A DNA stretch of 64,000 nt. Source: Saccostrea cucullata (Eukaryota). Both the position numbers and the translations under genes were made by a program. Below the pieces are notes generated by a model that saw only the letters and a list, made by a program, of their open reading frames with translations, made no database searches and was not told where the DNA came from. Of the stretch, positions 1 through 37,091 are shown piece by piece (the stretch's first letter is position 1; every line of letters begins with the position of its first letter). The DNA is taken from the NCBI RefSeq assembly GCF_032062105.1, contig NW_026931975.1, forward strand, positions 310,001 to 374,000, read 5' to 3'.

Positions 1-290
1 ATCAGACCAAAACTGTAGGAGGAGTAGCATTTTGAAAGAATTTCACAGAAATTTCTATTTTTAGTAACCACGGCAACACCGTTCATCGAAATCAAAAACC
101 GATACACAGAATTATGTATCTTAGTGTAGTCTATTTGTGTGCCAAGTTATATTGAAATTAGACCAAAACTGTAGGAGGAGTAGCATTTTGAAAAATTGTT
201 TACAGACAGACGGACAGACGGACAGACAGACAGACAGACGGACAGACGGACGGACGCCGGACGCATTACTAATAAACTTTCAGTAGAGGA
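1..290 (+). mobile_element. End of a HINE with 156-bp repeat (same family as 6943-8348)
   Basis: 156-bp unit followed by (GACA/GACG)n microsatellite. Terminal hairpin is degenerate. Confidence 0.85.
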
Positions 291-3608: not shown

Positions 3609-6600
3609 TCACATGACCAGGCGATCTTCCTCCAGCACAGCGGGGGGCTGCTCCCCATAGACACCCCCTCCCATTCCTCCCCCGAAGCTCCCGGACAGCT
3701 CGAAGCAGTGCCTTTTACACTCCAGGAGCCTCTCCACGTCCTTCCACATCTTCATCTGCCTGAGGCTGGGGCCGTGGTTCTCCCTGACCGTCTTCTGCTG
3801 TTCTCGCAGACCTTTACCTAGGTTCTCCTGCTCCTGGATCTTCCTCTGGTAAAGCTCTCTGTAAAAGATTAAGAAGAAACAGGCATTATTAGAGACCCCT
3901 GTGTACGACTGACAAAGCAGACAAATTTAGTGTCTAGTGTTAATAATTTTAAGAGAAAAAGCGATCAAATAGCACTACCTCATAAGTGTCAACTTTAATC
4001 AGTATCCAAGTTGAAAAGGGGGAGAATATTTTTTTAAACATTTTTTTCACATTAGCCAGAGAATCCAATATACTAAAACTGAATTATTTTAAACTAAGAC
4101 ACTAAAATTGATGAATATTTTCAAGTTTCAAAAGTGAATCCAATGATACAGAATGGCAGAATCAGAGCCACATCAGGTATACTAAATGTAGCAATCTTTT
4201 GAATGCCATTGTTTGTCCAATCTCATGTAGGGAAAAAAAAGCATGTCTACCAAAAACAAACATCAACACTACCTGTATGTCTTTTTGCGAGCGTAGGGAT
4301 CAGCTGATGTGTAGGCCTTCATCTCGTCAGCCACCTTCCTCTGTTGTACCTCCACCATCTGCATCATACAGTGGAGGTAGTGGTAGCGGGACTCCTCCTG
4401 GGAACACTCCTCCTGATAGGCCCGCACCTCCTGTAAAAGGAAAATCATAAACATTAATTAGGCAAAACAATCATGTCCGCACCCCCTGTAAAGGAAAAAC
4501 CATAGGAAAATCAATAACGCCCACACCTCCTGTAAAAGGAAAATCAATTAGGCTTCCACCCCCTGTGAAAAGAAAATCACAGGCAAATAAATAACGCCTA
4601 CACCTTCTGTGAAAGAAAAATCACAGGAAAATCAAATAGGCCTGCAACTCCTGTGAAAGGAAAATTTGGCACATTTATCAGGCAAATCAATTAGGCCAAA
4701 ACCTATCATGCAAATCAACTGGATCAAAATTTCCTGTTAAATGCTAATTAGGAACATTTCTGGGGCTATCAGGCAAATCAATTAAGACCTGAACTTCTTG
4801 TCAAATTCAAATAAGGCACACAATACAAAATCTTAATATGGATTACGTGACTGATGTATATAATTTATTATAGAGTAAGTAGGAATCAACAAAATTAATG
4901 TCATACTGATGATACGAATTAATTTATTATATTATGTCAAGAAGTTTATGAAACTGTGTTTGAATTGACTGGGCAACATGGGATCCTATTTCATAGCAAG
5001 AAGTGAAGGTGTCCTGAAATAAGGGTCAACGCTGAATTTAATCTACTTGTAGATCACTTTACATATTTTAACATTCATAGGTTAATAAGTAACAATTCTG
5101 AACAAATCAAAACTCTAGATTCCCAATTCCTTTAATTTTGGATAAAAATAACAAAAATATTTCACAGAATGTCAGAACAAGTGAAAATTTGAATCCTTCA
5201 GGAAATAATGTTTATCCCTTTCAAAATACACTGAAAACCATTTTCTTGTTTTCAAGTTGAGTATCTTTTATTTATTCATACCAAACTACAAATCTGCAAA
5301 TTAATTACAAGGTAGAATAGGATGAAAATCAAATGATGAAAGCAGATATTTCCATGAATATCACTCATTTTTGTGGGGATTTTTCATCGTTTTCGAAGTA
5401 CGAAGATACCAACAAATTTTTGTCCACAATGAAATGTAATTTCTCGCATACATGACTACTCAACGATTTCTTCATCCACAAAATCAAATCCTTTCGAACT
5501 AATATTTTTGATACATGTACAGACCACAACATTTTACCTGTTCTCAGTAATTATCTTAACCTGTATACAATAATTCTGTTTACCTGTTCCAGTTTAGCCA
5601 TGTTGCTCTCCAGGCCGGCAGCAGCAGTATCATAGGCCTGCTTCTTCTCCGTGTGTTGGTTTGTCAACTCCTGTAAAAAGAAGTAGTAAAATTTCATAAC
5701 TTTTTTCCTTATTTTGGCAGCCTTTTTAAAATAAGGAATTATAAATTCAAAGATTCTGCATCATAAAAACTGGAAATTGGCATGTATAAGCATATAAGAG
5801 GTGCAAATTTTTTTTCACTTCTTTTGTTTTCATAAGAAAAAATGAAGGGTACCCTTTTTGCCCATTTTGAAATTAAAAAAAACAGTGTTCATATGCCTGA
5901 CAAAAATATATTTGGAAATTGGGAAATTAATTGCTGATTTTCATAAATAATTTAAAGTGTTTTATTTCATTCATTCAGCTTGACTTCAAACACATTCACA
6001 TACATGAGCAATATACCTATATCTTCCCCCACATAAATAAAGGAAAAAATCACACATTTATTACATCAAAGCAACACTTTTATTTATCATTACAGTCATA
6101 AACTGGTTATCAAACATTTATACATGAAGGCAAAACGTGAAACTGTTTTCCCTATGTTTATGTCACTGACTTACATATTCATGAGTAATTTATTCTCTTC
6201 ATGACTCACAAATATAGATATATCCAATCTGATCAACAGGGAACCCCATACTAATCTGCTTGTATGAATATTTCATGGAAAGCGGAGAGATGAGAACAGA
6301 TTAACTTTGACATGTAGATTTTTTTTTTTACTTTATGTATGTATATTTATAGACCCTGAGTTATTTCTTTATTGTGAGAATAAAACACAATGGTTTGTTT
6401 TTTCTATATTTATAGAAAGTTTTTACATTCCAGCACGAAGCACTGTCCTATAGTGCCAATCTTTTTCAATACAAAATTTACTATTGTTGACTTTTATTGA
6501 TGCAGTTTTCTTACAAGTTTAAAATAAATTTACTTACATAACTTAAAATTACAATTTACAATCTGTATTTTAACACTCAATTTGAAATCATCTATGTGTA

Positions 6601-9600
6601 TGTATTCATATTTCATAAATTTCACATTTCAGGGAAGATATCTAAAATGGAGTTATATGTCTTCATTGTCTTGATAACTTAGTTAATTTCAATTTAAAAT
6701 TTCATTGATATAGTAATGTGGTTATCATTAAATTTCAGTTTTAGTGATATGCTAATATGATTTAAATTTTATGATTTTGATGTTCTTGTTGCTATGGAGT
6801 TTGTTGGAAATAGCAGTAGATTAACACGTCATTGAAATTTTATGCTTCACTTTGGATGAATGCATCAAAAAACACTTTTTAATTTAAGTAAATTCAATGT
6901 TATTGATGTTTTTAATTTGACATGATATATTAATCACCCAATAACCAGAAGTCTCTGTCGAGACTGAAGCTCTACTGGTTTGTACTTATAGCAAAGGAAG
7001 AGAAAAGTACTTAAGCAGTTGGAAATTGAAACTTTTCAACAGCAATAAATAGAATAATGATCCTTGATTAAGTCTCTTTATGTTCTTAGTGTAGTCTACT
7101 TGTGTGCCAAGTTATATTGAAATCAGACTAAAACTGTAGGAGGAGTAGCATTTTGAAAGAATTTCACAGAAATTTCTATTTTTAGTAACCACGGCAACAC
7201 CGTTCATCGAAATCAAAAACCGATATACAGAATTGTGTATCTTAGTGTAGTCTACTTGTGTGCCAAGTTATATTGAAATCAGACTAAAACTGTAGGAGGA
7301 GTAGCATTTTGAAAGAATTTCACAGAAATTTATATTTTTTGTAACCACGGCAACACCGTTCATCGAAATCAAAAACCGATACACAGAATTATGTATCTTA
7401 GTGTAGTCTACTTTTGTGCCAAGTTATATTGAAATTAGACTAAAACTGTAGGAGGAGTAGCATTTTGAAAGAATTTCACAGAAATTTCTATTTTTAGTAA
7501 CCACGGCAACACCGTTAACGAAATCAAAAACCGATAATCAGAATTGTGTATCTTAGTGTAGTCTACTTGTGTGCCAAGTTATATTGAAATCAGACTAAAA
7601 CTGTAGGAGGAGTAGCATTTTGAAAGAATTTCACAGAAATTTCTATTTTTAGTAACCACGGCAACACCGTTCATCGAAATCAAAAACCGATACACAGAAT
7701 TATGTATCTTAGTGTAGTCTACTTGTGTGCCAAGTTATATTGAAATCAGACCAAAACTGTAGGAGGAGTAGCATTTAGAAAGAATTTCACAGAAATTTTT
7801 ATTTTTAGTAACCACGGCAACACTGTTCAACGAAATCAAAAACCGATAAACAGAATTGTGTATCTTAGTGTAGTCTACTTGTGTGCCAAGTTATATTGAA
7901 ATCAGACTAAAACTGTAGGAGGAGTAGCATTTTGAAAGAATTTCACAGAAATTTCTATTTTTAGTAACCACGGCAACACCGTTCATCGAAATCAAAAACC
8001 GATACACAGAATTGTGTATCTTAGTGTAGTCTACTTGTGTGCCAAGTTATATTGAAATCAGACTAAAACTGTAGGAGGAGTAGCATTTTGAAAGAATTTC
8101 ACAGAAATTTCTATTTTTAGTAACCACGGCAACACCGTTCATCGAAATCAAAAACCGATACACAGAATTATGTATCTTAGTGTAGTCTACTTGTGTGCAA
8201 AGTTATATTGAAATCAGACCAAAACTGTAGGAGGAGTAGCATTTTGAAAAATTGTTTACAGACAGACAGACAGACAGACAGACGGACGGACGACGGACGC
8301 ATTACTATCGCATAAGCTCTTCTGGTCTCTGACCAGTAGAGCTAAAAATGAAACATGAATGAATTGATCTTTCAAATTCAAACAAAATTAAGTATCAAGA
8401 TCTTAACACTTTGGAGGTTTAAGCTTCCAGTTTACAAGCCCTTCAGGCTTGTTAGTTGCAAATTTCCACTTGCCAGCTAATAATTCTAACGATATCATGC
8501 CCCCATCCCATAACATCAGATTTGTTAAAGACTGGAATTAAGAATTTAATTATAGACCATCCACACGACACCTACCTGATTAATTATTGACCACCCCCAT
8601 GACTCTTACCTGAGCTCTCTGTCTCATTGGTCTCAGTTCTTTGATTATCGGAGCCAGGGAATTCTTCTTGTTAGCGATCGTCCTGGTCAGTCGCTGAACC
8701 ATCTCAGAAATATCCTCCAATGTCTTTCCTTTCCTCTCGTCCAGTTCACTTTTGACGGCGGACACTTTCTCCAGTTCCTCCTGGGTCTGACGATACCCTG
8801 TCACTCCTTTCTTATTCTCCACAGCTTCCTGTAAAGACCAATATTTACTTTAAAAAACATCAAACACATGTGTGTAATACAAATATGGGGACAATTTCAG
8901 AATACAATGTACTAACAAGTGGACGCAAATATAATGCATCACAGGAAAAAAATAAAATTTGAACACTTATGGATTTATGCTGCATAATTTTTAAGATGTA
9001 CGTTCTTATAAATGAACCCTAACCTTTTCATTCTCTAGCACTATCAAAAAGACCACAATACATAAAGAATTCACATATTTTCTATTTTAAAAAAAAAATG
9101 AATTAATGTCTGATAATTCTTGACCCGTTTTTTTTTTAAAACAGAGAAAAAAAGCCATAAGAGACTCACCAGACTCCTAGTTATAAATTCATCTCTCTGA
9201 CGTAAAATCTGCTCGGTGCGAGACAGAACTCCAAACTCAGCTCTGATTTCGGCAATCTCCTGTCTCTTCTTCTTGTAGATAGTGCTCTTACTTCTCAGTT
9301 TGTTTACATATCTTTTAAACTAAATCAAATAAAAGAAATAATCATCTCATTCAAAGTTTAAACAAACATGGAAATCTTAGACTTACATCAGTTCCACATG
9401 ATCTGAGAGAGTTTACAAGTGTCCTTTAATCTCTAATGCATCTTTACCAAGTTGGAACCTTTAATACCATTTTTGGATTGAAAGGGGGACTTCGGTTAAT
9501 GATAACCTCTGCACTAATAGCAAATGACTGACAAGGAAAAAATCTAAACTGAAGCAATAATTTGAAATTTGACATAATGTATGAGGCATGTTATAAATCA

Positions 9601-12600
9601 ACGTGTTGTCTACATGTGGGTAAAACACATACGAGTCAATGTAATCTACATGTCTAAGCCACAACTCACAATACTGTATACAGGGAAATGAAATCATACA
9701 AAGTGGGTGAATTTAAAACAGGACAAATTAAGGACTCCCTTTAGGACTACCCCACCCCACATAATCCACCTATGTAATACTTACATCCTCTCCCTTTAGG
9801 ACTTCCCCACCCCACATAATCCACATGTGTAATACTTACATCCTCTCCCTTCAGGACTTCCCCACCCCACATAATCCACCTATGTAATACTTACATCCTC
9901 TCCCTTCAGGACTTCCCCACCCCACATAATCCACCTATGTAATACTTACATCCTCTCCCTTTAGGACTTCCCCACCCCACATAATCCACATGTGTGATAC
10001 TTACATCCTCTCCCTTTAGGACTACCCCACCCCACATAATCCACCTATGTAATACTTACATCCTCTCCCTTCAGGACTTCCCCACCCCACATAATCCACC
10101 TATGTAATACTTACTTTAGGATTCCCCACCCCACATAATCCACCTATGTAATACTTACATCCTCTCCCTTTAGGACTTCCCCACCCCACATAATCCACAT
10201 GTGTAATACTTACATCCTCTCCCTTCAGGACTTCCCCACCCCACATAATCCACCTATGTAATACTTACATCCTCTCCCTTCAGGATGATACCCCACATAA
10301 TCCACATGTGTGTTACATCCTCTCCCTTTAGGACTACCCCACCCCACATAATCCACCTATGTAATACTTACATCCTCTCCCTTCAGGACTTCCCCACCCC
10401 ACATAATCCACCTATGTAATACTTATATCCTCTCCCTTCAGGACTTCCCCACCCCACATAATCCACCTATGTAATACTTACATCCTCTTTCTTCCCCACC
10501 CCACATAATCCACCTATGTAATACTTATATCCTCTCCCTTCAGGACTTCCCCACCCCACATAATCCACCTATGTAATACTTACATCCTCTCCCTTCAGGA
10601 CTTCCCCACCCCCGGCTTCCTTGGCGGCCTCTCGTTTCTGCTCCAGCTCCATGGACATTTTGTGATAGGAATCACGCACCTCTCTGAAGTCCCTCAGAGC
10701 ACCCTCCTTCTTACTAGCTATAATCGCAGCCTAGGAGAAAATAAGAGGTCTTGATTACATTCACGGATTAGGCCTATTCTATCAGCATACAATGACTTTT
10801 CTTCCTATTCTAGAGGAGATGGACAAAGGATAATATACAAATGTAAATTAAAAAATATGAGATTTTGTAAATTTCTTCATCAAATCAAAAAGATTTTCTG
10901 CAATAAACTTGAAAATTGAATTTAAAAGAAAATTTAAAAAAAGTTAAAATTTTGCGCTTTTGTGCAATTTCCAAATACGAATAAATGATTGAGAAAAGCT
11001 GCTTGGTGACCAAGCTGACAAAGATCACCCTGACCTTCTCTTTATGTATATAAACCTGACAGAGACACAAGGATTTATTGCCCTGTATAGAGATCTGATT
11101 GAGAATTGACTGACCTGCTGCTTGAATAGGGCTGATTTGTTGTCAGTGGGGTCCTCAGTCCTTAGTTTCTTCTCAACAAGTTGTTTTATCTCCTCTGTCA
11201 AGTCTGCTATCTAAAATGAATTTGTTGAAAAAAATTTCAGGTTGATATAACAATTTTTTTTATAAAAATCCTAACTCAATAAAGGATCCTTAAGAATAAC
11301 AGCAGGATAATCAGTGCCATAATAAGAAGCACCCTTATACTAAATTTAAAAATCTGCTCTTCAAAAGGAGAGACACAGAATCTGAATGGGTAGTGATGAA
11401 GGGTTTTTCAAAGATTCAAGAAATTTTTCTATTGATTCTTATTAAGAAACAACCTAACACAATTTTTAAAAATTTCTTCATACGAAAGATAACCAAATTG
11501 AATGAAAATGCTCTCACATAATTTCTTCGAATGCATTTCATAGCATAGCTATGAGAGATCTTATGAAATATATAAGGAAAATGTAAAATTGAAATTCATT
11601 TGAACATGTAGTACATGTTGCACACTTCATATAGAATGTTATATGCTTGTTTTAACTAAGGACTAAGGGAAGTAACTCTTTCTTAACTTTGAGATTGCCG
11701 ACATTTTTAGAGGTACAGTCATGTACACTATGAATTAACATGTACCTGTGAGAAAATGATTTCTCATACATTATGCATTTTCTATCAATATATTGTGGAC
11801 ATTGGTAAGCTATATATGATATGGTTTATTCCAAATTTGAAGGAATTTTCTATTTATTTCTACAAAATTACATAAAACTAAATTAAGAGTATCCATGTAC
11901 CTGGTCATGCAGTTTGTCTAGATCAGACTGTCCCATGGCAGGCTCAGCTACCACTTTCTGAAGGTTAAGAAGAATTTTCTTCTGCTGTGCTATCTCTTTA
12001 GGCATTTTCTCTGTCACTATGTATTTGTTAGTGTGTGTTTCTTCTTCCAGTCTCTGCAGCATCACTATAATGAAGATAAGCATTCAATAAAAATGAGCAT
12101 TTAATGAAGATATAAGCATTTAAAGTACCACTTATAAAAGAAAAACTGTTAGTTTGTGAATGCTGAAAAAATTTGTATTAACATGAATACCAATTTATCA
12201 ACTCAGTTCAAAAAATTTTGGTTATCAGTGAAAAAATGCAACCAAAATGGGTCGGGAGTTGGTTGTACACAATGACAAAAATAAGCACTGACACTCTCTG
12301 CCTCTTCACAATTTATTTTAATTTGCAATAGTCAATATGGAATTATATGCTACTGGACCATCTTTTCTACTAGTAAGATGAAATTTACCTGCAGGGTTGG
12401 CCCCTATAGCTGCTTGTCTGGTGTCATGTAACTGTGACTGCAGTCTCCTGATTTTCTGATCTTCATGTTGAATCTTTAAAAAGAAGGCATATATACAATG
12501 ACCATATACTCTGCCTTTACATACATGTTATGTAAAGGCAATGTAATTTTTTGTCTGGCAATGTGACTAGATATCATGTATTTAACAACTTTTCACATTT

Positions 12601-14677
12601 TCATATCAATATAGGGAAAAAATAATAATGATAAAGATGTTACTTTCTATGCATGGAGACATCACAATCTATATCAATTACTGGAATCCCTTGAATTCAT
12701 CACTGAATGAAATATTAATCAATGTAAATGACCCCTGGTCAAACTGACCAGTGTGGACTGTTCCTGTCTTTGTTCAGCTAACTTCTTCTCTTTGTCTCGT
12801 TCAAGTCTCAAATTCCTGGCCACATTCATCATAGTGGTGGAATTAGGATGAGACTCCACCTATTAAAACAGAAAAATAAATTGTGTTGGATATTTTAATG
12901 TAAGGCTTTTAATATTTTAGTATTAAACATTTACAATTAACAGGTCACAGTGTAATAGAGATAAAGATTATTTTCCTTTGGTAATCAAATCTTAAAAAGA
13001 ACTTCTAATGCACATGCAGTGTAATTGTTTACTACACTTATTATGGACATATACAATACCTTTCTTTTGAGTCTTTCTACTCGTTTAATCAGCTGTTCTT
13101 TCTCTTCCTCCATGTTGGAGATGTCCTTTTTGATTTCCCCTGTGTTATATCCCGAGTTCTTCAGACCCTCTGCCTCTTTGTGCAGCTCTTTGAATTGTTC
13201 CATAGCTTCCTCATACTTTAAAATAATCAATAATAAAATGTACTTACACTGAACAACATAAGAAAAATATAATGTTCTCTTCACAACATGCAAAATATAC
13301 TGTCAAATTATTTCTTTCATAATTGCATGCACTGAAAAAACAAAGTAGACTTATTAGTTGACACAAACCTGTGCAAAGAGATCAGGAATGGGATCCTCTG
13401 CCATGATCTCCGGGGGACATCTACCTTCACCAAAAACCGGGCCAGGTAAGCTCTCTTCTTGAGATCTGGTATCCGCTTTAACAGCCATTCCAGGATGGGA
13501 TAAATAACTAACTTGTCTCCCTGCACTAAGCCACTTCTGAATGATTGCCTGCAAGTTATGTTCAGAAGTGTTAAAAGAAGAAAAGCTACAATATTACACC
13601 CCTACCAATTTCCTTCTTCATATCATATGACAAATACATGCACTTCTGTTATATCAACAACTTAAAGCTAAATAACTATGTAACATTTAAAAGTGTTTTT
13701 TTTTTCATCCAATGATAAATTCATTTGTAATTAACTAAGTACAAGAAATTAACAGTTTCTCATTTTATTTTATGCTTACTTTATGCTCTATGTGTATAAA
13801 ATTACTTGTAACTGTTTCCTTTACCTTATCAAATCCATATACAAGTAACACAGAGAGACTGAAATTGTATACTTACACATCACTGTAAAAAAAAAAAAAA
13901 TAGAAAAGACAGACATATTAATAAAACATATCAAAAATTATAAGACATGGATATATGTTTTCATGTAGGTAGATGCATTACATTTTCCAAGGAATATCGA
14001 TTATACAGAATTTTAAATTATAAAATGCATGTATGTATTCCCTTCATTTGTGTTAAGTCAATGTAAAAATTCATTTTAATTTCGATTTCAATAATAGCAA
14101 GGAAAATGACATCAATCTTACTCTGTTGGGGGTTTATATTTAAGGATCCTCAAGGTGTTAAACATTCTGACTGCAGTCTGATCAGCTGATTCCTCCCGGA
14201 TATCAACTTTTTGCTGTAAGTCAAAACATGATTAAACATTTAAATTCATTAACACTCTTACAAGTATGTGTGTACACGGTTGTCCCTAAGACCCTGGGAA
14301 TTTCCCCACCTATAATGACATATGAAATCCCTGGATATTCTTGAATCACCCCTCATGCCCCTGTTAGGGAAGGAACCCCATGCCTTTCTACTTTTTTAAT
14401 ATCTTGCTAGTTGTTAGGGACAACCCTGCACAAATTCTAAACGATTTAAAAAAAATTTTAATTCTGGTAAATTAAAGTCATGAAGCATAAATAGTCAACT
14501 AAAAGTAAATGATTATTGTACTGTAGAATTAACCTTTGGATCAATAACACCCAAAACATCAGTCAAAACTTGGAGAAGTTGTAAAGGCTCCAAGGAATCA
14601 AATGATATCAAGTTATAGGTCTTGCTGAATGGCTCCTTGGCCAATTCCTGGACAATGAACTTCAATTGTTCACTCAT
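3609..14677 (-). CDS. IFT81: Intraflagellar transport protein 81 (IFT-B), ~681 aa, 15 coding exons
   Basis: Exons 5'->3': 14677-14534, 14213-14122, 13882-13877 (micro-exon), 13548-13369, 13215-13060, 12859-12749, 12473-12389, 12064-11901, 11210-11115, 10730-10584, 9319-9170, 8828-8610, 5670-5584, 4430-4273, 3858-3609. All are GT-AG and phase-consistent except one missing base at 13412-13416. Translation [38 protein letters not shown]...[13 protein letters not shown]...[18 protein letters not shown]...EEDRLVM* is collinear with human IFT81 as recalled. A 5'UTR acceptor lies at 14700 and AATAAA at 3427-3422. Confidence 0.97.
4420..4665 (-). repeat. Degenerate ~40-bp repeat (6 copies) of an IFT81 3' splice site
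   Basis: Plus-strand CACCTCCTGTAAAAGGAAAATCA variants at ~4421, 4477, 4519, 4553, 4596 and 4638. Confidence 0.85.
6943..8348 (+). mobile_element. Non-autonomous Helentron-type element (HINE/pearl-like) with ~7.5 x 156-bp tandem repeats
   Basis: Subterminal inverted repeat AGCTCTACTGG / CCAGTAGAGCT, near-identical 156-bp units, (GACA)n(GACG)n, and terminal hairpin AGCTCTTCTGGTC-TCT-GACCAGTAGAGCT followed by an A-run. Confidence 0.9.
9733..10612 (-). repeat. 55-bp minisatellite (~16 copies) made of an IFT81 exon end plus its 5' splice site
   Basis: Unit on minus: GGGGTGGGGAAGTCCTGAAGGGAGAGGAT|GTAAGTATTACATAGGTGGATTATGT. The first copy is the true exon end (GEVLKGED). Confidence 0.95.
14275..14428. 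mobile_element. Small MITE
   Basis: CACGGTTGTCCCTAA / TTAGGGACAACCCTG inverted termini. No clear TSD. Confidence 0.6.
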
Positions 14678-14881: not shown

Positions 14882-15680
14882 CAATGTAATCTCAGCGAAA
14901 TGTCCTTGGGACTAAAAATTTTGTCTGGAATCCCTTGTCGGAGAGTCAACATCTCAGCCCGGTGTCACACAAACTGATTCAGGTTTTCTTGCCCTGATTT
15001 TGTTTGTTTCAATCAACACAAGTTGAAATGAATTAGCTGATTTTGTTTAAAAGGTTTAAATCCAACAAAATATAAAGTTGAATTTTTTTATTTGTTTAAA
15101 TGCAGCTTCAAATACTTCGTTCTCCTCCTGTTTCCTATAGGAATTTATTTGATGCAGACTATTGCTGGAACTCTTCAGCATTGAAGGTTTAAACAAATTG
15201 GATACTGTAAACCAACTATTATTTGCATCATCTTTTATTAGCGATTTGTCAGTTTGAAATCAATCCGCGACAATTAATTTTCATGAATAAGGAAACATTG
15301 TCTACAAAAACAAAGCAAAATAAATGATTCATGACGATTAATATTCGCAACCTAACGAAGGTCGCAAAAACTCGTGAATATTTCTCACACACGAATAAAA
15401 TTTGGTTTACAGTATATATCTATGAAAAATCAACAACTTTATATTTTGTTGGATTTAAATCTTTTAAAGGTAAGAATTAGAAACGAAAGTTTTATAGTGA
15501 TAGAGACCTAAAAGGAAGTTGAAGTGGGCAGCTAATTCATTTCAGCCGGTATTCATGGAAACAAACTGTCGAAGTCGGGGCAAGAAAAACCGAATCAGTT
15601 TGTGTGACATTGGGCTGAGATGTCCTAGGGACACCAGACCAAAATTTTTAGTCCCTACGTCATCTCGCTGAGATTACAGT
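14882..15680. mobile_element. Foldback element with ~200-bp inverted arms and a nested MITE (~15203-15414)
   Basis: TGTAATCTCAGCGA..GGGACTAAAAATTT..CACACAAACTGATTC is mirrored at 15590-15680. The inner arm 15045-15080 is mirrored at 15434-15468. Nested TACTGTAAACCAA...TTGGTTTACAGTA. Confidence 0.78.
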
Positions 15681-16000: not shown

Positions 16001-16015
16001 GTTACTATGGACAAT
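16001..16015 (-). promoter_or_regulatory. Candidate RFX X-box in the IFT81/SPCS2 divergent promoter
   Basis: Minus strand ATTGTC-CAT-AGTAAC fits the relaxed RYYNYY-N3-RRNRAC consensus, upstream of a ciliary gene. An ETS-like ACTTCCTG lies at ~16283-16290. Confidence 0.55.
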
Positions 16016-16300
16016 AAAAATCCTATAAATATGAATTGCTGCAATAAAATTGATGTGAAAATTTAATTGTCATTGTTTAATTAACAAAGTATTTGACTTC
16101 TATGAAATTGTACAATTTCTTACCATAGAAAATGTGTGATTGTTGCCACTTTTTGCTGTTTTTTTTCGGTCTTCTGAAAATATGCAGATCCCCGGATGAA
16201 CACAGAAATTGTAGAAATATCGATCCCGATTTAAATAAAAATTTAAATCGGGTGCGGGATTCAAATCTATTGAAAAACGTGTACTTCCTGCTAGACGAAG

Positions 16301-19300: not shown

Positions 19301-21745
19301 AAGCCTTTTTTTATTAACTTTTTTTAGAAACCAATATATCGCATATCGCTTTAAAAAATATCGTATCGTATTGTATCGAAATACTTTGTTCAATACACAG
19401 CCCTAGTTAATGATACTATTTTGTTAATTTGACTGTAGTGGAACATTGATGAGAAACCAGTGAAGATTGATAAATGGGACACAGCAGCTGTGAAGAATGC
19501 TCTAGATGATGCTGCCAAGAAGGTAACCAAAATTTGAATATTAAGATCTCCATCAGAGTGTTCAAATCTAAGTTCTTGACTGCTTTCATCTCTGTCTGTA
19601 TCAATATAAACTATTGGGAGGGGGTAGGTCTAGTATAACAATAATCCATAATGAATGTATATTAAATATGTATATACCTACTCCTCATATTGATCTTAAT
19701 ATGCTCACTGATTTTGGAGTGTATACCAAAGTTCCAAAATACTTTTTTGAGTAAAGCATGCTGATTTTTTTTCATTTTCAAGTAAAAGGAACACTAATGA
19801 AGGAGATATGACAACATTTTTTTTTCACCATTAATTCAAAACTGTTAGATACTGTAATTTTATTTGGATTTTTCAATTCTGAGACAGTGAGTGCTATATT
19901 TGTTTCTGAATGTAACAAATTATAAAATGTTGCATATAGTGCAGTACATTCTGTTCTTTGAATTTTTTACACATCCATTGTCTAATACAACCATTTGTTG
20001 ACTGATCTAATATGATGTCTTACACAGGTGTTGAAGGAGAAGTTTGGTTACGTGGAGTCACACAAGCTGATGGACCTCCGTCTGTTGATCTGTACCGTCG
20101 CCGTGGGTTTCTCTCTGTTCGCCCTCATCTGGGACTATCTCCGGCCATTCCCCGAATCTCGACCCATTCTCATCATGTGTGTTTTATCGTATCCTTTCTG
20201 TCACCACAACAGGAGAGAAAAATGTTTATCTGGATATTTTAGCTTGAATCCAAAAAAATACAATCATTAAAAAATAAATGATTAGCATCTTTGTTTTTGA
20301 AAATGAGGCATGTACCATATCACAATAAGTATGGCACTGCACATTCACAGGGGAAATTGATATTAATGAAATAAAAGATGTAACAGCTGTACAATGATTA
20401 TGACATGATCAGGCGAGTTTTCCTTTGAAGTATCTGCCTTCTAGAGTTTGTCAAACTGTATTAATTTGCTCCACAAAAGAGCAGTACCACTGACAGTTAA
20501 TTTGAAATGGTTTATTATTGCTGCAAATTCAAATTCTTCTACAGTTCAAATGCTTAATTTAGCATCTTATTTCATTCTAATGTTCATAAATGGCAAGGTC
20601 TTAGTGTAATAATTTGTGTTTTTTTATACACACACCAGGTACTGCATGTTTTGTTTATATGTTTGAGTTTGCTCCTTTACCCAGTGTCTAGATACTTTGT
20701 GTTGATGGGAATACTGACCCTGTACACCACCTATGTGGAGAAAGGGATTTTTCTGGTGGCCCTCCAGAAAGACGAAGCAGGGGTGGATCCAGACAATAAA
20801 TGGGAGTTGTCCTCACTGTTAAAAAAGTAAGTTATAAAAACCACTCAGTGTGTGTATTGTAAAATGTTGGCGTCTTTATGATAGTGAGGTTTAGTAGACA
20901 AAATCTGTGTGCCAATTGATAAATGTGTATTACAAGTAAGGATTATGCTTTCTCTGTTTATCGGTGTATAGTGCATACATTTGCTCGGAAATGTTATGAA
21001 TGTTACATGAAATTTATAATGTATATCAAGGTCAAGTGTATAAGGTATATAAAGGTCAAGATTTTATGTATTTAATCTCTATAAAATGATTCAGTGATAA
21101 TCTTTTAGATCTTTGGTGTTTTGCTATAAATCTTTAGGAATTAGAAAAACACACATCTTTACTGAAATTTCAGAATTGTAAAACTTGATATTGTAGAAAG
21201 TAGGTACACATTAATGTTAGATTCTCTATGTTATTACTATGCCCCCCTTTGATGAAGGGAGGGCATAATGCTTTGCTGCTGTGTGTTGGTCGGTCTGTTG
21301 GTCCATCATCAGTTTCCGCTCATATTTTGCAATGGTTGCACATATTGAAATAAAGTTTGGTATACAGATTTATCATGAGAATATCTAGGTCAACGTCTGT
21401 TTTGGGTTTGATCGAGCCATTTTGGACAGAGTTTTGCCCCTTGGACTTTGTAAAATGCCAATAATTTGCAGTTTTAAATTATTTGGGGGAGGGGGGCATA
21501 AGTGTTTTACACATCTCTTGTTTACAGTTTTATATAAATTATTATGCTCTATTTATAGATATGATGACATGTACCACCTCACCATGACCTTCACAGACGG
21601 AATCACAGGGATCCAAAGGTCAAAGGAATTCTCCAAGTCTGTCGCCAGCTACTTTGATGAAAATGGAACATTATGTTTCGATCTCTTTGAACCAGAAATT
21701 AGACTTCTTCATAATCAAATTTCAGCAGAAGGAAAGAAGGACTAA
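16301..21745 (+). CDS. SPCS2: Signal peptidase complex subunit 2 (SPC25), 196 aa, 5 exons
   Basis: Exons 16301-16324 (MSSKKSAK, least certain), 19439-19522, 20028-20188, 20692-20826, 21559-21745. Motifs [52 protein letters not shown] and [13 protein letters not shown] match SPCS2. AATAAA at ~22052 and ~22094. Confidence 0.96.
16852..17705. mobile_element. Non-autonomous TIR element with 6-bp TSD (ATATCA)
   Basis: TIR CATAGTTGCCAAC / GTTGGCAAGTATG with ATATCA on both flanks. A related inverted fragment lies at ~47915-48092. Confidence 0.85.
18934..19405. mobile_element. hAT-type MITE
   Basis: TIR TAGGGCTGT / ACAGCCCTA, perfect 8-bp TSD GTTAATGA, subterminal ATCG repeats. Confidence 0.9.
20189..20691 (+). 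other. U12-type (minor spliceosome) GT-AG intron in SPCS2
   Basis: 5' site GTATCCTTT at 20189. Branch-like CTCCTTTAC at 20672-20680, with the A 12 nt from the 3' end and no polypyrimidine tract between. Joining restores the CVLS|YFVLMG frame. Confidence 0.93.
21236..21523 (-). mobile_element. Short HINE/pearl-like element in SPCS2 intron 4
   Basis: Hairpin TATGCCCCCCTT...AAGGGAGGGCATA, GTCG/GTCT microsatellite remnant, and distal GGGGCATA...CTCTTGTTT. Confidence 0.75.
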
Positions 21746-29753: not shown

Positions 29754-32700
29754 TATTTCATGGCATAAAATGGTACAACGGGTAACATTAAAACTTATGG
29801 GGGAGTCGTTTTCAACGTATGGGGAATTAGATCACCGCTTCGGAGTCAGAGGAGATGTGGGTCAGTCTTTTTGGGTAAATTAGGTTTGACAAATATCCCA
29901 CGGAAGATGGCTATATATAGCTTTATCTTGTCATTTGTTGTTCTGTCATATACATACATGTATAAAAAAAAAAAACCAAATGAATATATGGATAAATTCA
30001 TAAAAATTTTCATTTGAACAACCTCCCTTTTTACAGTTAAAACATTAAGAGAAAATTTTTTTTAAAAGATTGAAATAGCCAGACTTTACAAAAATTAATA
30101 ATTGAGACATTTTCTCCTCGGTTACATTGAATACTATCGGAAAAATCACGGGAGTCGCAAAATAAAGTCAAATGCATACTTTGTGTTGTTTTCATCTCTT
30201 TTATACTGCCAATACCTATTTATTTACTCTTAGATATCTATAAATCTATGTTTGGTAACTTACTTTATAATCTGAAGTTATGAAAAGATATTTTTCTGTG
30301 GCTTTATCAGTTCTAGAAAAAAATCAGCAATATAGATTACATGAACAATTGGATTATATATCATCAGAGCACATGTGCTTGAAGGACTGTAATTTTTTCA
30401 TGTTTTTCACAAAAATTCAAACAGTCAGGAACCATCCAACATCAAAGTAATTCTGACTATCCTTCTTGTAAAAATTTTTAATATCAAACAATTTTTTTGC
30501 AGAATACTTAAATCATAGTAACTGTTATTTGCTAATGTGTTGATAAAACTTGGTTGTCAAACTGTCCGTCGTTTCAACAACCCGTGTGTCATGTGTTAAC
30601 ATTTGAACATTTTCAGCTTCTTAATTTAAAAATTGATTTACCAATTTCAACCAAATTTGGTATACAGCATCTATGATGTTGGACCGGGAACAAAAATTTT
30701 GAATTTCATGGTCCCCGCCCGTTTATGTCAAAGTGGGGTGGGGCCAAAACCACTAAAATTAATGAAATCTTTAAAAATTTCTTCTTTACTCCTGGACATC
30801 AAGCAGGCAAACTATTGGCATGAATGTAATGAGCATTGAGTCCTCTACCAAAATTGTGAAATTCATGGCCCCAGGGTCAGGGGTTTTAGTACAACAACGG
30901 GGCAATATAACAGATTATATAGTGAAAATGCAATATTTCTTTGAAAATCTTCTTCTCTGCTCCTGGGTATTAAATACACTAACTAAGCAAATTTTATGAT
31001 AATATTAACCATTTTTTTTATTTTCAAAAAAATTTGTGAATTTCATGGCCCCTTCAGGGGTTCTGGTGTTAGGGGGGATAAATTTAGATTATATAGTGAA
31101 AATGCATTATATTTTTCTTTGATTAATCTTCTTCTTGCTCCTGGGTATTAGATACACTAACTAAGCACATAGCTATGATTGAGAATATTTTGGCCTCTTT
31201 CAGATTTGTGAATTTTATGGCCCCAGGGAAGGGGTTCTGGTGTTAGGAAATGGGGCTCTATAGAATTATATAATGAAAATGCATTAATTTCTTAGAAAAT
31301 CGAAAATTTTCTCTGCTCCTGGGTATTAAATACACTAACTAAGCTACATAGTTATGATGAGCAAGAGTGCCTCTTCCAGATTTGTGAATTTTATGGCCCC
31401 AGGGCGAGGGGTTCTGGTGTTAGGGCGTGGCTCTATAGATTATATAGTGAAAATGCATTTATTCTTTGAAAATCTTCTTTTCTGCTTCTGGGTATTAGAT
31501 AAACTAACTAAGTACATAGCTATGATGACAAAACACATCTTTCAGCTAGATTTGTGAATTTTTGCCCCATACATTTTTCTGTGTTAATGATATTATCATT
31601 ATCAAATTATATAGTGAAAATGCATTAAAAATTTCTTCCGTAAATCTTCTTCTCTGCCCACACTGACATGGGCAATACTCGAAATGTACACTAACTAAGC
31701 ACATTTACTATTTGACTTAAGAAAACAGCTGAAAGGTTATTCTTTTTAGTATGAATTTAAATAACAATTTTTAAATTACATACAGCTCAAATAAAAGATT
31801 TTTACAGGCAAAAGAAAAAAAAAAATGGGATGTGAAAGGAGGTAACAACAGTTTGACAACCAAATTATATAGTAAAAATGCAAATTATTTCTATGAAAAT
31901 CTTCTTCTCTGCTCAATAATAATAAAAAAATTTTTGATATTATTAAGCACATTATATCGGGATGATCTTTTATTAGAGTGCCTCTTTCGGAAGATTTGTG
32001 AATTTTATGAATTTTTGGATATATATGGAAAATTACATATTGGTGTTAGGGTCCCCAAGCACATGTGCTCTGATGATATATATATTGTTCATGTAATCTA
32101 ATGCTGATTTTTTTTCTGATAGAAAAATATCTTCTCTAACTCCTGGGTATTAAATACACTAACTAAGCACATAGTTAAATGATGCAGTATAAAAGAGATG
32201 AAAACAACACAAAATTGTGAATTTTATGGCCCCAGGGTGATGTGCTTTGGTGTTAAACGGGACTCCCCCCTACGTAACCGTTTATATAGTAAAAATGCAT
32301 TATTTTTTTGAAAATCTTCAAGTTTAAGTTGGTATTAAAAGATAAACTTAAGCACATAGCTATTTTAAGCAAGAGTGCCTCTTCCAAAATTGTGAATTTT
32401 ATGTTTTTCCAGGGTCAGGTAAATATGAAACTGGTGTTAAGTGTTTGAGAAAACTATTGTATATATATAGTAAAAATACATTTATTGCCATTTGTAAATA
32501 TTTTTCTTTGCTTTTTATATTTAGCCAATGAAAGTATATATATATTTATGATGAAGATTCATTTGGTGCATACGTTGAAAAGTGGTTATTAATGCCCCCG
32601 TTAGTTGTATACGGGGGGTCACGTGGTTACATACCTGAAAATAAATTAATGCTTTGAAATCTGCTCTTTGTTATATTAATCAACCATTTTACATAAATAA

Positions 32701-35700: not shown

Positions 35701-37091
35701 GCATGGTTAATACTTGCTTACATACCACATATGGTCACTGACCATTGATAAAATTCTTTAACTGTGTTTTAAACGCTCTCCATTTACCAAGACTCCACAA
35801 GACTTTAGGATCAACTCCTTAATGTAGCTTTAAGTTGAAATAACTTTTTTATACCCCACGCAACAAGTTGCGTGAGGTATGTTTTTGACCGTCAGTCCGT
35901 CAGTCCTTTTTTGTCAGCGCAACTCGTAAACCGCTACACAGAACTTCGTCAAACTTTGGTGCAGATATTTAGGACACAATGTGTAGATGTGCATATTACC
36001 AGGGAATTCCGATTCCTTTATTTTTTCCGGGAATTTCCGCACTTTTCAACTTAGATTTTGGCCATATCTTGAATATAGAGATGAATAGTTTGTCAGCGCA
36101 ACTCCTCAGCTGACAACTCAAACTTTATATTTAGGACACAATGTGTAGTGTTAAGGAAATTCTTTTCATTTTTTCTGGGAATTTCCGAACATTTCAGCTT
36201 AAATTTTTGACTATATCTTGAATATAGATATGAACAGTTTGTCAGCGCGACTCCTCATAAACCGCTGCACAGAATTTCGTCAAAATTTGCAGATATTTAG
36301 GACACAATGTGTAGACATGCACATTACCAGGAAATTCCGATTCCTTCATATTTGCCGGGAATTCCTGCAATTTTTAACTTAGATTTTTTGCCATATCTTG
36401 AATATAATGATGAATAGTTTGTCAGCGCAACTCCTTATAAACCGCTGCACAGAATTTGGGCAAACTTTGCAGATATTTAGGACACAATGTGTAGAAGTGC
36501 ATATTACCAAGAAATTCCAATTCCTTTATTTTTTTCCGGGAATTTCAGCACTTCGACTTTTGGGGGAGCGTGGGGTTTGTGAGCTTACTCACTTTTTCTT
36601 TCATTTTGTTTAAAAGAAAACATATAGTATTGGTTATAGCTACCTGTAAGACTAAGTTACTCAGTAATCAAATTATATGATGAACTTTTCAACGACAAGT
36701 ATAACATGACTTTTATTCTCTTCAGTGTAAGCGGATCATGTTGCCCAGTTGTGCCACAATGAAAACTCTTAAGTTAAACATCAAACTACTTAAAGGAGCG
36801 TTCGATACAGAGAGACAAAAATGGGTCAATCTAAGTGTGAAACAAAAACAACAAACAGTGGAAACAACTAGAAAGAAGATCAACAACTTGGCACAGCAAC
36901 AGTCGAAAATGATTTCTCAGTTTAAGCAATGGCGAAGGCAACAGAAAGCCGCGAAGAGAGCCGAGAAATTAAAACAGAAGAAACTCCGCCAGAAACAGAG
37001 ATCACAAAGAAAGAAATCCAAGAAAATTAAAATGAACAGAGGCAAAATAGTGTTGTTAACCAATAACACTATCCTACAGAATGTTGTGTAG
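24449..37091 (+). CDS. Uncharacterised, probably secreted protein, ~342 aa, 6 exons, with Lys/Arg/Gln-rich C-terminal helix
   Basis: Exons 24449-24504, 26254-26394, 28637-28805, 33520-33709, 34248-34354, 36726-37091. All five donors are GTAAGT, intron phases 2,2,0,1,0 match, and 1029 nt are open. N-terminus MATVRYILFVLLESVFLAHLRA is signal-peptide-like. No family recognised. Confidence 0.82.
28215..28430 (+). repeat. Degenerate ~40-bp repeat
   Basis: CAGTAATTGTCTAAGTTT recurs 4-5 times. Confidence 0.65.
30560..32950 (-). mobile_element. Degenerate HINE with ~170-bp repeats, reverse orientation
   Basis: Reverse-complement HINE core (CCAATTTCAACCAAATTTGG), then repeats of TTGTGAATTTTATGGCCCC...TATATAGTGAAAATGCATT...CTCCTGGGTATTA. 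Heavily scrambled in its second half. Confidence 0.7.
33649..34000 (+). repeat. 70-bp tandem repeat (5 copies) of exon-4 end plus donor of the unknown gene
   Basis: CAGCCCCACCTAGACTACGCCTTCCAGCC...CAGG|GTAAGTATA at 33661, 33731 and 33801, with diverged copies at ~33871 and ~33944. Confidence 0.93.
34430..35510 (+). repeat. ~22-bp degenerate minisatellite (GAAATGTGGCTGTAGACAGAGT)
   Basis: Continuous for ~1.1 kb in intron 5 of the unknown gene. Confidence 0.92.
35846..36610 (-). mobile_element. HINE with ~4 x 150-180-bp repeats, reverse orientation
   Basis: T-run, hairpin ATACCCCACGCAAC-AA-GTTGCGTGAGGTAT and GTCA/GTCC microsatellite. Repeats anchored on TTTGTCAGCGC at ~35910, 36089, 36238 and 36417. 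Confidence 0.8.

Follow-up and report, generated by a model that had tools for sequence, protein, structure and literature searches.

The IFT81 locus and its X-box-like sites

The window, i.e. the whole 64-kb stretch of oyster DNA that was analysed, contains the gene that the original prediction had named as host of a tandem set of RFX X-boxes. This gene is indeed IFT81, since two of its exons matched IFT81_CH over the Pfam cut-off; the exon reading frames ran in order from 14677 to 3609 on the minus strand, and most exons were joined at GT-AG introns by spliced reads of related oysters. The sequencing runs represent relatives at roughly 90-95% identity, with word shares of at most 0.23. A non-coding first exon of IFT81 probably ends near 16123. 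The gene, the intron concerned and the X-box-like sites with their family members were located as follows:

3609..14677, minus strand: IFT81 coding span (reading frames, IFT81_CH, relatives' spliced reads)
5674..8609, minus strand: IFT81 intron containing the element, between exons 8610-8828 and 5584-5673 (frames, GT/AG borders)
7185..8133, plus strand: seven X-box-like 14-mers GTAACCACGGCAAC, one per 156-bp unit (regular expression)
1..260, minus strand: second family member, terminal part, with 13.6 units and the 5' stem-loop absent; 3.4 kb past the IFT81 stop
59712..60133, minus strand: third family member, older, with a CAT variant of the box; adjoins RB_A exons of an RB1-like gene

The junction across intron 5674-8609 would follow from its GT/AG borders and the reading frame, and spliced reads covered the lower exon. 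A one-base frameshift at 13411 in the assembly is probably an assembly error; most or all reads of the relatives' three RNA runs had an extra G. Another IFT81 intron contained a 55-bp C-rich minisatellite (16 copies, 9735-10612) abutting an exon, and exons of SPC25, a signal peptidase complex subunit, were situated head to head with IFT81 at 20558-21742 on the plus strand.

A regular-expression search of both strands of the window found the seven copies of GTAACCACGGCAAC exactly where they had been predicted (7185, 7341, 7497, 7652, 7808, 7964 and 8120), and the sequence fits the mammalian X-box consensus GTNRCC-N0-3-RGYAAC. Nine sites in the window matched this consensus, namely the seven of the array and those at 64 and 59900, compared with a chance expectation of 0.32 and a maximum of 2 in 100 Markov-1 simulations. 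The site at 64 had the same sequence as those in the array, and that at 59900 was GTAACCATGGCAAC. GTAACCACGGCAAC is a 14-bp imperfect palindrome with a perfect GGCAAC 3' half-site, differing from the perfect palindrome by two mismatches, one of which creates a CpG. The consensus RYYRYY-N1-3-RRNRAC, quoted for ciliary X-boxes in the available part of PMC4168999, had no match within the array on either strand; that consensus is from the fly.

The seven boxes had been described as invariant, which is correct, but a special meaning of this is not supported, as 40 of the 157 14-mers were likewise invariant across these seven units (144 of the 157 alignment columns were invariant). The seven sites are not independent, being a single motif within a tandemly repeated unit. 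Likewise, the copy at 64 was present but is in fact the final repeat in a longer array, of 13.6 units, crossing the left edge of the window, and the copy at 59900 was found as predicted, flanked on one side by the RB_A exons. The family thus has three copies in the window, two of which are in or beside IFT81.

Architecture of the element

The suggestion that the array had been delivered by a transposon was borne out, as it lies in a complete non-autonomous Helentron (HINE) of about 1.4 kb with the Pearl/CvA architecture, composed of the following parts:

6943..8345, minus strand: complete HINE, about 1.4 kb; similarity to dispersed copies ends here, both ends being uncertain by 2 bases owing to insertion within a T run
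8332..8343, minus strand: 5' subterminal inverted repeat (subTIR), 12 bp, with TTTT before it; perfect pair with 6968-6979
8315..8326, minus strand: internal inverted repeat (IR), pairing with the 5' subTIR into a stem-loop (DNA fold)
8258..8299, minus strand: GTCY-type microsatellite (ACAG/ACGG on the plus strand), the motif class of the Cg_HINE left flanks in the available part of PMC7492417
7084..8253, no strand assigned: central array, 7.5 copies of the 156-bp unit, 96% matches (tandem repeat analysis)
6968..6979, minus strand: 3' subTIR, perfect 12-nt inverted pair with 8332-8343
6950..6965, minus strand: 3' palindrome with a 6-bp stem and a 4-nt loop; the element ends 5 bases on, followed by TT

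Dispersed copies had ends identical in position to those of the 6943-8345 element and otherwise unrelated flanks, with TTTT directly upstream of 18 of the 19 distinct 5' ends and TT downstream of 20 of the 22 distinct 3' ends; loose ends also accumulated at 6943 in both DNA and RNA runs of relatives. The 5' stem-loop had a folding energy of -10.7 kcal/mol (z -6.0), equalled in none of 200 shuffles, and the 46-nt 3' end of the element folded with a z of -3.3. The 3' subTIR and palindrome are carried by a 139-bp module, and the central tandem repeats keep a fixed orientation after the 5' module and the microsatellite. The flanks of dispersed copies revealed a TT or T-rich insertion site without target-site duplication, and the family is interspersed, high in copy number and non-coding, the longest stop-to-stop frame across the element being 54 aa. 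Every hallmark given in the portions of PMC4067079 and PMC7492417 at hand is present, and the element belongs to HINE. Judging from its repeat unit, the 156-bp-unit HINE appears to be a new family of an already known kind, and an RFX motif in such transposons is apparently unreported; a literature search returned no report of one, and the satellitome supplement of PMC11136912 may name the repeat.

It was also noticed that the window contained at least seven further arrays with units of 128-180 bp (30838-31528, 36198-36544, 38216-39251, 48969-50348, 51103-51599, 54079-54397 and 55876-57069), which are probably other HINE families, several of the Cg170/HindIII type. The array at 48969-50348 adjoins an ACAG microsatellite, and by eye the 166-bp arrays of the window resemble cluster CL1 of Crassostrea gigas. 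An intact 533-aa pogo/Tigger-like transposase frame with HTH_ABP1_N, HTH_Tnp_Tc5 and DDE_1 was located at 45482-47080 on the minus strand.

Copy number and age of the insertion

Exact GTAACCACGGCAAC occurred 24,734 times in 1.17 Gb, compared with 3 occurrences of the reversed pattern, and an unrelated 14-mer of the same 156-bp unit occurred 21,876 times. At about three exact boxes each, this corresponds to some 8,000 elements, in an assembly that includes some haplotigs. The probability that a 12.7-kb gene, the size of IFT81, holds at least one copy is 8-15%, and the presence of the element in IFT81 is therefore likely due to chance. Forty arbitrary 10-kb stretches, drawn from six large contigs that had a match, contained 6 elements and 2 weak fragments, and in a sample of about 950 kb the family accounted for about 40 of the 47 consensus X-boxes. 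A complete, 97%-identical member with seven boxes was situated about 0.5 kb past a proteasome-subunit exon (G000:C18427, about 118,860-120,450) and is a twin of the IFT81 case in a non-ciliary gene. With copies adjoining this exon and the RB_A exons, the family is, as had been stated, not restricted to ciliary genes.

The 3' module of the element (6943-7080) had a depth of about 780 in a relative's oligo-dT RNA, compared with 25-40 for IFT81 exons, which suggests that many family copies ride in transcripts. The depth at the element end was rejected as a signal of the IFT81 copy, the mixed loose ends there representing other loci.

The terminal modules were 94-100% identical to their best-hit copies elsewhere (27 and 21 of 29 partly overlapping loci). 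In run X7, from the DNA of a relative, an 810-nt contig matched 6798-6920 and continued for 584 nt without a listed match to the element end, pieces as long as the element end being among the matches listed for other contigs of that run. This one contig from one run suggests that the relative's IFT81 site is probably empty of the element, and the insertion in the IFT81 intron looks young. The intron had a single match in the assembly, so that no empty allele was found there.

RFX palindromes in the family and in other oyster transposons

A factor of the kind invoked in the original prediction is encoded in the genome, with 52 of 60 residues identical to the DNA-binding domain of human RFX1 (RFX1/2/3 type), and from this domain binding of RFX to the boxes is predicted to be plausible. 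The perfect palindrome, GTTRCCATGGYAAC, was found at 4,320 sites, compared with 12 for the reversed control. When the first 50 sites listed were grouped by flank, 17 clusters resulted, 9 of which had several sites; 10 sites belonged to the 156-bp-unit HINE family, 18 to a 1.75-kb family flanked by TTAA and split into two clusters, of which one is a 77-85% relative, and 4 to a 0.65-kb element with TTAA-CCC-like ends. The representative of the 1.75-kb family (L178:1857-3604 in G000:C128) had seven boxes, compared with 0.2 expected, and TTAA at both ends with short terminal repeats, and several more distant clusters or families share this type of end. It was further observed that this family is non-coding, with copies 92-95% identical and extra half-sites besides the seven palindromes, and that the 0.65-kb element (L176:1528-2182 in G000:C128) has TTAA-CCC-like terminal repeats, one perfect X-box and 4 copies at 83-88%. 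From the end structure, the 1.75-kb family is putatively Kolobok-like and the 0.65-kb element putatively piggyBac-like. Both superfamilies occur in bivalves, according to the part of PMC10294476 available.

Flank clustering of the 50 sites gave no flanks in common among the HINE, 1.75-kb TTAA and 0.65-kb types, and descent of the TTAA family and the HINE unit from one ancestor was rejected, as their flanks had no similarity beyond the box. As far as sequence can tell, the oyster genome has three or more mutually unrelated types of DNA transposon that carry the perfect RFX palindrome.

In 98 distinct units from loci chosen independently of the box, the box ranked 89 among 143 windows for conservation, or 39 once CpG columns were dropped, and its ranks within two subfamilies were 55 and 83; by this alignment its conservation does not exceed that of the other parts of the unit. 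In one subfamily, G/C columns in the box were somewhat less diverged than other G/C columns (5.5% versus 9.7%). Across the subfamily consensuses, 29 of 156 columns varied overall and 2 of 14 in the box (positions 3 and 8, both free in the X-box consensus), for which P was 0.03-0.16, a rough value from a consensus set chosen in part for perfect boxes. In the most diverged HINE cluster (8.3%) the box was perfect and in the next (5.3%) it had one mismatch, whereas clusters at 2.7-5% divergence, including the IFT81 copy, had two, the second change creating a CpG; the box departs most from the canonical form in the least diverged subfamily, to which the IFT81 copy belongs. Within the unit, CpG columns decayed three times faster than others (15% versus 5%), suggesting that the unit is methylated. 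According to the accessible parts of PMC8106159 and PMC6923324, methylated DNA is bound by RFX1, and mCpG can stand in for T; a methylation switch of the box at position 8 is therefore conceivable.

It can be entertained tentatively that the motif serves the transposon, i.e. that oyster DNA transposons have been selected for RFX sites and that recruitment of the host RFX, which in the mouse is a major germ-line regulator, would open chromatin or aid mobilisation. The excess of GTTRCCATGGYAAC, its presence in three element types with unrelated flanks, the perfect box of the most diverged HINE subfamily and the encoded RFX1/2/3-type domain are consistent with this, as is the role of RFX2 in driving spermiogenesis in the mouse (PMC4498915, in the part available). 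However, within the HINE family the box has no extra conservation and the youngest subfamily has drifted off the palindrome. Neither CCATGGCAAC nor CCACGGCAAC occurred in the 13 main C. gigas HINE clusters (CL1-13, CL5 included) in the readable part of the array-table cells (400 characters). An X-box was absent from four further repeat arrays in the window, and outside the HINE family the motif was only mildly enriched in 939 kb (4 versus 0.5, one palindromic site being counted twice), with no enrichment of four related 10-mers in the same 939 kb. Moreover, the bound protein could be a transposase. Selection of this kind is compatible with chance insertion into IFT81.

It is rather unlikely that unrelated oyster transposons (HINE, the Kolobok-like TTAA family with up to seven boxes per copy and a piggyBac-like MITE) converged on the RFX palindrome as a means of recruiting the host regulator of cilia and germ line, forming across the genome a pool of RFX sinks or enhancers gated by methylation, in which IFT81 would be one of many hosts and the HINE family by itself would provide about 25,000 sites. 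If so, the CpG box of the youngest HINE subfamily would be switched on by methylation.

Possible action in cis on IFT81

The original prediction had also considered altered ciliary expression. A cis effect of the seven boxes on IFT81 is quite improbable in our view; the array would then be a decoy or a fortuitous enhancer within the intron, perhaps switched by methylation with the methylated C at position 8 mimicking T. The perfect 3' half-site, the match to the mammalian consensus, the CpG decay and the binding of RFX1 to methylated DNA speak for such an action, and in the mouse testis some two thirds of all RFX2 peaks map outside promoters, although the strongest are at promoters (PMC4498915, available part). 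Between the array and the IFT81 ATG there are 6.5-7.5 kb, and the probable first exon is about 8-9 kb away, whereas functional ciliary X-boxes would be expected no more than about 500 bp from the transcription start; in the accessible parts of PMC4498915, PMC2873420 and PMC4168999, documented functional X-boxes mostly cluster at the transcription start. The mismatch to the fly ciliary consensus on both strands also argues against it, relatives express and splice IFT81 with the site probably empty in at least one of them, and there would be competition for the factor from thousands of equivalent arrays.

The weakness of IFT81's own 5' boxes could be taken in favour of the intronic sites. No strict X-box was found at the 5' end of the gene, and the best of the weak candidates was recorded in single-copy DNA:

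16001..16015, minus strand: candidate ordinary IFT81 X-box near the 5' end, fitting RYYRYY-N3-RRNRAC

This candidate is weak, with 29 such consensus matches across the window and a low depth there in a relative's DNA. We discarded a C. elegans-type box at 15549 as part of the promoter, since it sits in an arm of an old inverted-repeat element (14885-15670, arms about 125 bp) within the first IFT81 intron.

Distribution relative to ciliary genes

Enrichment of the family near ciliary genes was examined with 14 ciliary loci (5 tektin, 3 B9, 2 TMEM17-type, 3 radial spoke and IFT57), 8 of which are tektin or radial-spoke genes and only one an IFT gene. Controls were 14 proteasome loci (280 kb) and the 40 arbitrary stretches (400 kb), about 20 kb being counted per gene locus. 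Seven probable haplotig duplicates, one weak tektin match, fragments below 78% identity (two in the arbitrary set) and IFT81 itself were excluded. The ciliary, proteasome and arbitrary sets had 3, 3 and 6 elements, at 3 of 14, 3 of 14 and 6 of 40 loci, with densities of 11.0, 10.7 and 15.0 per Mb, respectively. No enrichment was seen: 3 elements in 271.6 kb versus 9 in 680 kb of controls gave a rate ratio of 0.83 (95% CI 0.15-3.3), which, with only 12 elements, is compatible with up to 3.3-fold enrichment and excludes strong targeting.

The proposal that RFX tethers insertion of the family near ciliary genes is thus extremely improbable: two copies are in or beside IFT81 and 3 of 14 additional ciliary loci hold a copy or fragment, but proteasome genes and arbitrary stretches show the same rate, the T runs at insertion sites explain the target choice, the copies at the three ciliary loci are all old (80-88% identity to the unit of the IFT81 copy), and the Cg_HINEs of C. 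gigas have no chromosomal preference in the available part of PMC7492417. More generally, the lack of enrichment, the proteasome twin, the absence of excess conservation of the box and a young insertion that is probably missing from a relative give no support to ciliary targeting.

Origin of the sites and their significance

Taken together, we consider it highly probable that the array in the IFT81 intron is a complete copy of an abundant HINE, most likely there by chance, recent, and probably of little effect on the gene. The Rep/helicase of an autonomous Helentron would have recognised the terminal stem-loops, and rolling-circle transposition would have placed a copy at TT; one motif would have become seven as the core expanded in tandem, and splicing would remove the element copy with the intron.

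In the oyster genome most consensus X-boxes are in repeats, and prediction of ciliary genes from the motif therefore fails where repeats are left unmasked. Binding of RFX to the arrays would mean that one mobile family had distributed about 25,000 sites for the master regulator of cilia and sperm tails across an animal relying on cilia to feed, swim and breed; transposons would then be hijacking or titrating a germ-line factor. Among these results, the repeated occurrence of RFX palindromes in unrelated oyster transposons most deserves to be followed.

Comparison with known systems

Binding sites spread by Helitrons are known and would represent a comparable case. The boxes resemble promoter X-boxes (PMC2873420, PMC4498915 and PMC4168999, available parts) in the 14-bp imperfect palindrome, the GGCAAC half-site and the association with an IFT gene, but they lie deep in an intron, in tandem and on a transposon, are probably lineage-specific, occur at about 25,000 places and have no match to the fly consensus.

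The DINE-1/HINE elements of Drosophila and mites, in the part of PMC4067079 at hand, are similar in having subTIRs, an IR by the 5' subTIR, a microsatellite, central repeats, a 3' stem-loop and TT insertion without target duplication; they are from another phylum, and the likeness is one of architecture. The Cg_HINEs of C. gigas (PMC7492417, available part) have the same module order (5' subTIR and IR, GTCY microsatellite, array, 3' subTIR, palindrome), a short array of 140-180-bp repeats, a TT target and a dispersed distribution, also within genes. Cluster CL5 has the 12-mer CTGTAGGAGGAG in common with the 156-bp unit, whereas the unit with its box was not found in the readable part of the CL1-13 array table, so that the family differs from the Cg_HINEs, for which that part of PMC7492417 does not mention an RFX motif.

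Pearl/CvA, known from Crassostrea virginica and from scallops and now classed among the non-autonomous Helentrons (PMC5874043 and PMC7492417, in the parts available), has a terminal module of about 150 bp and 156-bp core units, the first truncated. It has 2-6 units, compared with 7.5 in the IFT81 element, and by eye the scallop CvA primer printed in PMC5874043 is unlike the element ends. By description in the accessible part of PMC5874043, the 139-bp module, the 156-bp unit and the ACAG/ACGG tetranucleotide microsatellite of the IFT81 element all have their likeness in Pearl/CvA.
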